Made by a program: the position numbers and the translations under genes. Source: an uncultured Acidimicrobiia bacterium (GTDB lineage: Bacteria; Actinomycetota; Acidimicrobiia; Acidimicrobiales; Ilumatobacteraceae). From it: 64,000 nucleotides of DNA. Positions 15,912 through 16,403 of the stretch are shown in pieces (position 1 is the stretch's first letter; each line of letters starts with the position of its first letter). The notes below the pieces were generated by a model. It did no database searches. It was not told where the DNA came from and saw only the letters and a program-made list of their open reading frames with translations. The stretch lies in NCBI GenBank assembly GCA_963784255.1, contig CAWAQO010000009.1, forward strand, positions 346,545-410,544, read 5' to 3'.

Positions 15912-16403
15912 CTACAGCTTCTTGTTCGCCTTTGTGTCCCAGCCCGCCTTGATCGTCGACTCCGCCTTGCCGGAGGCGCTCTGGGGGGTGTAGCTCACCT
16001 CGACCTTGGCGAAGCGCAGTGAGAACTGGTCCATGGGGCGATCGCCCTCGCTGGCGCTCTGCTGGAAGCCGGTGACGGACACGTCGCTCAGGCGGTACTT
16101 CAAGAAGTCGCTGAGCTTGCCCTTCCCGGCGTCGCGGACGCCGCTGAGCAGCGCCTCCTTGATGTGGGTGCCGGCCGCGCCGGCGAGGAACAACGGCGGG
16201 GACGCCTTGCTCAGCCGGGCGACGAACTGGAAGTCCTGGAACGCCACCTTCCCGGCCGCGCCGCCACCTCCACCGGCCGGCGAGCCGCCGGCGTTGCTCT
16301 CCCCCCAACTCCACGCCTCGACGTCGATCTCACCCTTGTGCGTCGCGTCGACCGACTCACCGGAGATGCCGTCGAGCTTCAAGAACCAACGTTCGCCTGC
16401 CAC
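15912..16403 (-). CDS. hcp: Hcp-family (type VI secretion tube protein-like) protein
   Basis: 3' part of ORF 15912..18008 from GTG 16403: (M)AGERWFLKLDGISGESVDATHKGEIDVEAWSWGESNAG...KVAFQDFQFVARLSKASPPLFLAGAAGTHIKEALL...FAKVEVSYTPQSASGKAESTIKAGWDTKANKKL. It is 163 aa, the size and hallmark motifs of Hcp1. Confidence 0.85.
   Translation of the reverse strand: MAGERWFLKLDGISGESVDATHKGEIDVEAWSWGESNAGGSPAGGGGGAAGKVAFQDFQFVARLSKASPPLFLAGAAGTHIKEALLSGVRDAGKGKLSDFLKYRLSDVSVTGFQQSASEGDRPMDQFSLRFAKVEVSYTPQSASGKAESTIKAGWDTKANKKL

Follow-up and report, generated by a model that had tools for sequence, protein, structure and literature searches.

An hcp gene paired with large N-methyltransferase genes in monoderm soil bacteria without nearby type VI secretion genes

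The 64,000-nucleotide stretch of DNA analysed here (hereafter designated the window; contig CAWAQO010000009.1 of assembly GCA_963784255.1, positions 346,545 to 410,544), which comes from an uncultured bacterium of the Ilumatobacteraceae (Acidimicrobiia, Actinomycetota), contains an intact hcp gene. Hcp is usually taken as a marker and structural part of type VI secretion systems (T6SS), machines confined to diderm bacteria. We found that hcp and a dedicated large N-methyltransferase gene form a widespread two-gene module of monoderm soil lineages, namely, Acidimicrobiia, Thermoleophilia, and some Chloroflexota, with no T6SS genes nearby. The label "Hcp family type VI secretion system effector" is already given to these proteins by the pipelines of NCBI and JGI, and the family membership is therefore not new; the novelty lies in the setting, both genomic and cellular, in which this known family is found, and in the partner conserved beside it.

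A methyltransferase gene adjoins hcp in all 55 monoderm-phylum loci examined

A scan with an Hcp profile, using one genome per GTDB species, gave at least 596 confirmed loci, of which the best 80 were analysed with ±10 kb of flanking sequence by clustering the coding-like open reading frames (ORFs) and, for tolerance of frameshifts, by tblastn. According to the taxon labels of the public records, 54 of the species loci are titled Actinomycetota or Chloroflexota, and together with the window they make up the 55 monoderm-phylum loci considered below. In every one of them, a methyltransferase of about 500 residues, dependent on S-adenosylmethionine (SAM), is encoded within 50 bp of hcp. The preliminary description of the window, made from its letters and ORFs, had treated hcp as a stand-alone gene and thus overlooked this conserved partner, which in the window is convergent with hcp, the two stop codons being 1 nt apart. 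The partner belongs to one of two non-homologous types that occupy the same position beside hcp: a DUF7059 type in 45 loci, including the window, and a protein lysine methyltransferase (PKMT) type in the other 10, which come from Solirubrobacterales, Thermoleophilaceae, and Paraconexibacteraceae. In Acidimicrobiia the DUF7059-type gene and hcp are convergent, and in Gaiellales/Thermoleophilia-like genomes they run in the same direction; a few genomes have the divergent arrangement. Moreover, reciprocal look-up from the methyltransferase recovered hcp directly adjacent to it in independent metagenome contigs.

Other neighbours did not show such constancy. The preliminary description had proposed a survey for conservation of hcp next to the fatty-acid-CoA ligase and the OmpA-like/M35 gene of the window; this linkage occurred in 0 of 88 related loci, the genes co-occurring only in a sister strain of 97% identity. 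Likewise, the YjbR, DHDPS, GNAT, and nitroreductase genes, tried together with these two as conserved partners by tblastn in the 88 loci, do not adjoin hcp.

Two apparent exceptions, the loci L001 and L002, have hcp without an adjacent methyltransferase gene and with a sugar-uptake ABC operon adjoining it instead. L001 also carries, divergent from hcp, a block of six large genes (755..9885, minus strand; 585, 310, 374, 783, 279, and 509 residues) with hardly any Pfam match, apart from one DUF6603 and a faint PhoD. In L002, an Acidimicrobiia-like contig, a lone 146-residue gene of the Phage_T4_gp19 family, to which the tubes of phages and extracellular contractile injection systems (eCIS) belong, lies 4 kb from hcp (6070..6510, minus strand), and no other tail genes were called nearby. 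A tandem hcp pair (L088, 8001..9194, plus strand), the second gene possibly split, is divergent from a DUF7059-type methyltransferase gene, and no T6SS genes were called within ±8 kb. In the cyanobacterium Phormidesmis priestleyi, a close Hcp homologue of 56% identity (L086, 8001..8486, plus strand) has neither T6SS genes nor a methyltransferase gene within ±8 kb and is thus a different kind of orphan hcp.

T6SS genes are absent around the monoderm hcp genes

Twelve Pfam-verified T6SS core families (TssA, B, C, E, F, G, K, L, and M, ClpV, VgrG, and TagJ) served as queries. None of them was found within ±10 kb of hcp in the 54 monoderm genomes or in the 64 kb of the window, which is the span meant wherever a locus is called T6SS-less. 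In the tblastn search of the whole window, nothing matched besides hcp and one methyltransferase, and Pfam scans of the coding-like segments throughout the 64 kb gave no sheath, baseplate, spike/VgrG, gp19, or other tail gene. Both scans thus agree with the preliminary description, which had seen no T6SS, eCIS, or tail partners in this stretch. By contrast, 20 of the 26 loci from other phyla contain 3 to 12 of the core families.

The gene might also be a satellite: one more tube-protein gene of the ordinary kind, whose genome has a complete T6SS, or a contractile system of another sort, at a different place. This explanation appears quite unlikely. A T6SS requires the TssJLM complex spanning the outer membrane, no core gene occurs in the flanks of any of the 55 monoderm loci whereas the diderm relatives of hcp reside in full clusters, and the literature searched has no report of a T6SS from either Acidimicrobiia or Thermoleophilia. 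Moreover, a survey covering complete genomes found monoderm genomes without diderm-type secretion loci (PMC4793230). In favour of a satellite origin, T6SS-positive genomes commonly have orphan hcp genes, according to the same survey (PMC4793230); further points on this side are the length of the window, 64 kb out of a 1.32-Mb contig, and the lone gp19-like tube gene close to hcp in L002.

The window protein is a canonical Hcp1-type protein

The translated ORF agrees exactly with the length and the N- and C-terminal sequences quoted in the preliminary description, in which its strand had not been stated (Table 1). The product matches PF05638 (T6SS_HCP) over the full profile (positions 1–129 of 129; E = 3.8e-32; 111.7 bits against a cutoff of 23.5), this being its sole Pfam match. 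Of the two profiles proposed for checking the assignment, PF05638 is thus well exceeded, while the stricter TssD model TIGR03344 of NCBIfam gives 40.7 bits, under its cutoff of 58.9. The nearest solved relative by sequence is Hcp1 of Pseudomonas aeruginosa (PA0085, PDB 1Y12; E = 9e-30), a robust hexamer. An AlphaFold2 (AF2) model built from an alignment of 44 homologues (mean predicted local distance difference test score, pLDDT, 85.7; predicted template modelling score, 0.81) has the Hcp fold; in a Foldseek search of the PDB its best match was 1Y12 (template modelling score, TM, 0.91; 36% identity), followed by Hcps of Burkholderia, Salmonella, Acinetobacter, and others. The best 50 matches listed are Hcp entries exclusively, some of them Hcp1 fusion constructs. 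Because of the full-length PF05638 match, the sequence match to 1Y12, and the Hcp-only structural matches, the window protein is a canonical Hcp1-type protein and no distant look-alike, which bears out the Hcp1-family identity assigned to it at the outset.

The family alignment contains 16 invariant and about 28 nearly invariant positions, among them a Gly-rich loop and Lys52; the loop (GGGGGAGK) is flexible in the model, where residues 40–49 have pLDDT below 50. The C-terminal K-A-N-K-K tail is conserved as well. The hcp genes of the window and of a sister contig from another sample (L089) are 99% identical, with two amino acid changes, and dN/dS among T6SS-less hcp genes ranges from 0.11 to 0.49 (16 pairs). 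Thus, the T6SS-less hcp genes are under purifying selection.

Among the roles considered earlier for the protein was that of a domesticated phage-tube relative. This origin is not supported, in view of the absence of Hcp relatives from the 2.9 million viral contigs of IMG/VR, the lack of a PF06841 match, and the closest structures, which are T6SS Hcp1 proteins, and was rejected; a PHROG search with Hcp gave one match, to a PHROG of unknown function. A part in anti-phage defence was also looked for with PADLOC, which did not match Hcp at all, gave its partners no more than a generic methyltransferase-core match (mad2), and was not informative.

Two unrelated methyltransferase types, each with polypeptide-modifying relatives

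The window methyltransferase was recovered by tblastn with an intact orthologue (L006), residues 1–493 of which are covered by four high-scoring segment pairs at 56–72% identity. In the orthologues, the central MTS domain (PF05175) scores 49–55 bits against a cutoff of 23, and the window sequence contains VANPPFV with the NPPF motif; it therefore combines the two hallmarks of HemK/PrmC-like enzymes, the MTS domain and the (N/D/H)PP(Y/F) motif. In a Foldseek search, an AF2 model of a DUF7059-type enzyme (pLDDT, 89.6) was closest to AerE (TM 0.72 over about 390 columns), then to GenN, an aminoglycoside N-methyltransferase, and to PrmC-RF1. AerE catalyzes iterative N-methylation of peptide Asn side chains. 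The closest solved folds and sequences are those of AerE/PoyE, which N-methylate Asn side chains of proteusins, and of PrmC/HemK, which act on Gln-N5, and the (N/H)PP(F/Y) motif of these polypeptide-acting amide/amino N-methyltransferases is common to the window-type enzyme. The latter differs from them by its additional DUF7059 and DUF7782 domains and by an identity of only about 20%, and neither a ribosomally synthesized and post-translationally modified peptide (RiPP) precursor nor a release-factor context was seen at its gene.

The PKMT-type partner has another architecture, Methyltransf_25 followed by MethyTransf_Reg (PF10119) and PKMT_2nd (PF21782), and its representatives L032 and L060 qualify as class I methyltransferases. 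It is a clear homologue of the Rickettsia enzymes PKMT1 and PKMT2 (PDB 5DNK and 5DOO; E = 1e-74 and 1e-68), which methylate OmpB, and shares the MethyTransf_Reg and PKMT_2nd domains with them. With these enzymes, the methylation of a structural protein at multiple Lys sites has a precedent; the window itself has no Rickettsia PKMT-like enzyme but the DUF7059 type. Since two unrelated N-methyltransferase types with polypeptide-modifying relatives occupy the same position by hcp, the pattern is that expected of analogous enzymes acting on a shared partner.

The same methyltransferase types occur inside T6SS clusters

Of the 20 T6SS clusters sampled, 10 have a methyltransferase of at least one of the two types among their core genes, in Gemmatimonadota, Binatia, Acidobacteriota, NC10, and Planctomycetota, and the methyltransferases therefore behave as T6SS accessory genes. 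The DUF7059 type occurs in L034 (Gemmatimonadaceae), L035 (Binatia), and L036 and L037 (Acidobacteriota), and the PKMT type in L020 (Paludisphaera), L035, L056, L060 (NC10), L069, L074, and L075; L035 has two hcp genes along with both methyltransferase types. In L020, from the culturable Paludisphaera soli JC670, hcp is followed 7 kb downstream by the PKMT-like gene. The T6SS-embedded DUF7059-type enzyme of Acidobacteriota aligned end to end with the Acidimicrobiia profile in hhalign (99.4%, E = 1.7e-21). Within ±10 kb, Hcp is the only T6SS component retained with these methyltransferases in the monoderm lineages, and, since the same enzyme types reside in canonical clusters, the two-gene module is T6SS-derived or T6SS-shared. 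In a rough neighbour-joining (NJ) tree of Hcp, several T6SS-less clades are interleaved with T6SS-embedded ones, a pattern suggesting that hcp separated from T6SS clusters, or was transferred relative to them, more than once.

The occurrence of methyltransferases in or beside T6SS clusters also bears on a different interpretation, in which the methyltransferase serves, or once served, as a T6SS effector or toxin that depends on Hcp, its cognate carrier, the monoderm pair being stranded or using another export route. Genes directly downstream of hcp are indeed typically Hcp-dependent effectors in T6SS biology (10.1101/2024.05.07.592589). In the clusters, however, the enzyme is encoded among structural genes, e.g., between hcp and tssE, and not at vgrG islands, and no conserved immunity-like gene accompanies it. 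Moreover, an enzyme of about 55 kDa is far too large for the Hcp lumen, given the cargo sizes established for Hcp, and a stranded effector is not expected to stay under selection across 55 species. An effector–carrier pair is, in our judgement, very unlikely.

The Hcp-linked methyltransferases form a subfamily of their own

When the profile of the methyltransferase was run against JGI metagenomes, the matches were mostly distant, high-GC relatives (32–41% identity) without hcp within 3 kb, and the DUF7059 family is therefore broader than its pairing with Hcp. Thirteen of the distant relatives adjoin topA, encoding DNA topoisomerase I, and some lie near the principal sigma factor gene; this topA-linked subfamily looks like a conserved actinobacterial housekeeping methyltransferase. 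Hcp-less proteins with the DUF7059–MTS–DUF7782 arrangement were noted on the high-GC contigs L093, L099–L104, L108, and L113–L136.

In the distance-based (NJ) tree of the methyltransferases, all 39 Hcp-adjacent enzymes fall into one subfamily of 47 members. Five of its other eight members are on contigs too short to judge, one is beside ClpV, and two are without hcp; outside the subfamily, hcp accompanies 0 of 28 enzymes. The exact split was recovered in 121 of 200 bootstrap replicates, and in 196 of 200 the clade holding all Hcp-linked enzymes had no more than 50 members. This split shows that the association with Hcp belongs to a specific subfamily and does not reflect chance synteny with a housekeeping gene. 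The notion of an obligate pair is tempered, in that only this one subfamily is linked to hcp and the distant DUF7059 methyltransferases are mostly without it.

These data also allow a purely coincidental arrangement to be weighed, in which hcp landed beside a housekeeping methyltransferase gene and both were inherited vertically with no functional link, Hcp acting alone, for example as a chaperone ring. Such a history is compatible with a broad and mostly Hcp-less DUF7059 family, with the recurrence of other neighbours, encoding luciferase-like monooxygenases (LLM) and YjbR, within Acidimicrobiia, and with the convergent orientation in this clade, because of which the genes do not form one operon. 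It is nevertheless unlikely, as the two genes adjoin each other in at least two phyla and in three orientations, Solirubrobacterales and Thermoleophilaceae have an unrelated PKMT-type enzyme in this very position, both types lie inside T6SS clusters of other phyla, and the Hcp-linked enzymes are a subfamily distinct from the topA-linked ones.

Frameshifts in the window and the sister contig

The reading frame of the window methyltransferase gene falls into four segments, the frameshifts lying near 14710–14715, 15608–15622, and 15771–15830. Frame plots also revealed frame changes in the ligase gene near 17316 and in the OmpA-like/M35 gene near 14020. The sister contig L089 is 97.0% identical to the window over 5911..25379, with 119 indel positions in 19.5 kb; in the methyltransferase region these are at 14455, 14715, 15685, and 15842. 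The ligase gene of L089 is an intact ORF of 519 residues, to which the window adds an extra base at 17316. Only one of the frameshifts has a homopolymer context (G5 at 14721), and relatives from long-read 'MFD' assemblies have split genes as well. Because of the many indels relative to L089, the intact ligase there, and the split genes of the long-read relatives, the frameshifts of the window are most likely long-read assembly errors rather than signs of pseudogenes.

A decaying relic of recent horizontal acquisition, or a contig mis-binned from a diderm, would be another way to account for a lone hcp gene with frameshifted neighbours. We regard this as highly improbable: hcp is intact and under purifying selection, the frameshifts look technical, dozens of independent metagenome-assembled genomes (MAGs) have the gene, on contigs as long as 1.7 Mb, and the surrounding gene content is actinobacterial.

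Other genes of the window

The features at and around hcp are collected in Table 1.

Table 1 Features of the hcp region, in window coordinates
Feature	Position	Strand	Basis
Gene with weak OmpA-like domain and C-terminal Aspzincin_M35 domain (Lys-specific metalloendopeptidase, HELSH motif)	13170..14430	+	Pfam, frame plot
SAM-dependent N-methyltransferase, about 495 residues, DUF7059–MTS (NPPF motif)–DUF7782	14426..15910	+	tblastn, Pfam on orthologues, adjacency, AF2 and Foldseek
hcp, 163-residue Hcp1-family (TssD-like) ring/tube protein, intact, GTG start	15912..16403	minus	ORF, PF05638, 1Y12 match, AF2 and Foldseek
Spacer from ligase stop to hcp start, 41 nt	16404..16444	minus	Sequence and promoter scan
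Fatty-acid-CoA ligase (AMP-binding and AMP-binding_C), frameshift near 17316; context only	16445..18008	minus	Pfam, frame plot

The distance of 41 nt between the ligase gene and hcp on one strand, given in the preliminary description, was confirmed, the stop codon of the ligase ending at 16445. As a scan of this spacer detected no promoter-like site, hcp may be co-transcribed with the ligase gene in this strain. On the other side, just upstream of the methyltransferase gene, lies the OmpA-like/M35 gene (1261 nt), which is also present in the sister contig but does not adjoin hcp in other genomes; it is a curious coincidence that the product is a Lys-specific protease and that of its neighbour a putative N-methyltransferase of polypeptides.

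The Pfam content of the window comprises an ABC transporter, acyl-CoA ligases, dehydrogenases, and a thiolase, LLM, MoxR/DUF58/VWA, WS/DGAT, PIG-L (Mca/MshB-like), rhomboid, and sigma factor families, among others. The actinobacterial host deduced earlier is supported by the closest relatives of both Hcp and the methyltransferase, which are found in Ilumatobacteraceae (Acidimicrobiia) MAGs, and by a GC content of 72%. The MoxR AAA+ ATPase, DUF58, and VWA/BatA cluster (3847..6834, plus strand) is a common ternary system and is unrelated to hcp. A tmRNA gene (50084..50473, plus strand; tag AKTEQFAVAA) is followed at 50500..54000 by a region in which the GC content is lower (0.65–0.67, as against 0.72) and coding-like ORFs are sparse; an HTH_20 and a RibD_C protein are present. 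A genomic island at the tmRNA gene was considered on account of the lower GC content at 50–54 kb; an integrase was not found, and an integrated element is not established.

Discussion

The observations are best explained, with somewhat better than even confidence, by a T6SS-independent module in which the Hcp ring is the substrate or platform of the dedicated methyltransferase and serves as a cytoplasmic scaffold or chaperone. A sub-unit derived from, or shared with, the T6SS would then persist without the sheath, baseplate, and membrane complex, and the methyltransferase would N-methylate side chains, either in Hcp or in some polypeptide that the ring holds. The PKMT type would then act on Lys, and the NPPF/Y type on Asn, Gln, or Lys; candidate sites in Hcp include Lys52, which ends the invariant Gly-rich loop, and the Lys/Asn-rich C-terminal K-A-N-K-K tail. 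The modified hexamer might thereby act in the cytoplasm as a ring scaffold or chaperone instead of a secreted tube. A chaperone role of Hcp is established for T6SS effectors.

Several points weigh against this interpretation. The two genes are separable, with a sugar-uptake ABC operon of about 12 kb between them in the contig of L001, and two members of the Hcp-linked subfamily with full flanks, L119 and L146, have no hcp within 3 kb. The wider DUF7059 family, as exemplified by its topA-linked subfamily, works without Hcp. As LLM and YjbR genes are also often near hcp in Acidimicrobiia, the adjacency there could partly be inherited synteny. The methyltransferase frame is broken three times in the window, and, if these breaks are real, the pair is decaying in this strain. 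The absence of T6SS genes is known for the 64-kb stretch of the 1.32-Mb contig, from which we infer their absence from the genome as a whole. In a search for methylation sites, no Hcp residues separating methyltransferase-linked from unlinked copies were evident. Finally, the methylation of Hcp and the binding of the enzyme to Hcp are putative.

The module differs from the known Hcp-containing systems in its constant partner. The window protein is alike to Hcp1/TssD of the P. aeruginosa H1-T6SS in family, fold, length, and the GGGGGAGK loop, whereas it falls below the TIGR03344 cutoff and its gene belongs to a monoderm lineage, has no T6SS genes nearby, and is accompanied by a methyltransferase gene rather than by tssB and tssC. 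The orphan hcp and hcp-effector islands of Proteobacteria resemble the module in that hcp lies away from the main cluster with a functionally tied gene beside it; in contrast to the window-type locus, with its methyltransferase of about 55 kDa, no immunity gene, and no T6SS seen, their genomes have a T6SS and the neighbour is a small toxin gene with an immunity gene. Tube-based contractile machines do exist in the same phylum, i.e., the eCIS and the contractile injection system of Streptomyces, but their tubes are of the gp19 family (PF06841) and are encoded with sheath and baseplate genes, whereas the window has PF05638 and none of these genes. A full-text search of the literature found nothing on Hcp in Acidimicrobiia or Thermoleophilia or on a link between Hcp and methyltransferases, and nothing on methyltransferases as T6SS accessory genes or on the DUF7059, DUF7782, and PKMT_2nd families.

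That Hcp is conserved and under selection in the genomes of at least 54 monoderm species, with no machine nearby, would show an autonomous function of this ring protein, and its invariable pairing with methyltransferases of polypeptide-modifying types leads to the concrete hypothesis of Hcp methylation. In addition, two methyltransferase families stand out as hitherto unrecognised accessory genes of the T6SS in soil phyla that have received little study. In practical terms, counts of hcp in metagenomes and metatranscriptomes are not readable as T6SS activity where Acidimicrobiia and Thermoleophilia are abundant. More speculatively, Hcp may have a second, T6SS-independent life in monoderm Actinomycetota and Chloroflexota, in which side-chain N-methylation by a dedicated enzyme controls the assembly of cytoplasmic rings or nanotubes or the binding of clients, and in Acidobacteriota, Binatia, NC10, Gemmatimonadota, and Planctomycetota the same modification might regulate the T6SS tube at a level so far unrecognised, a proposal that we put forward tentatively, as possible rather than probable.

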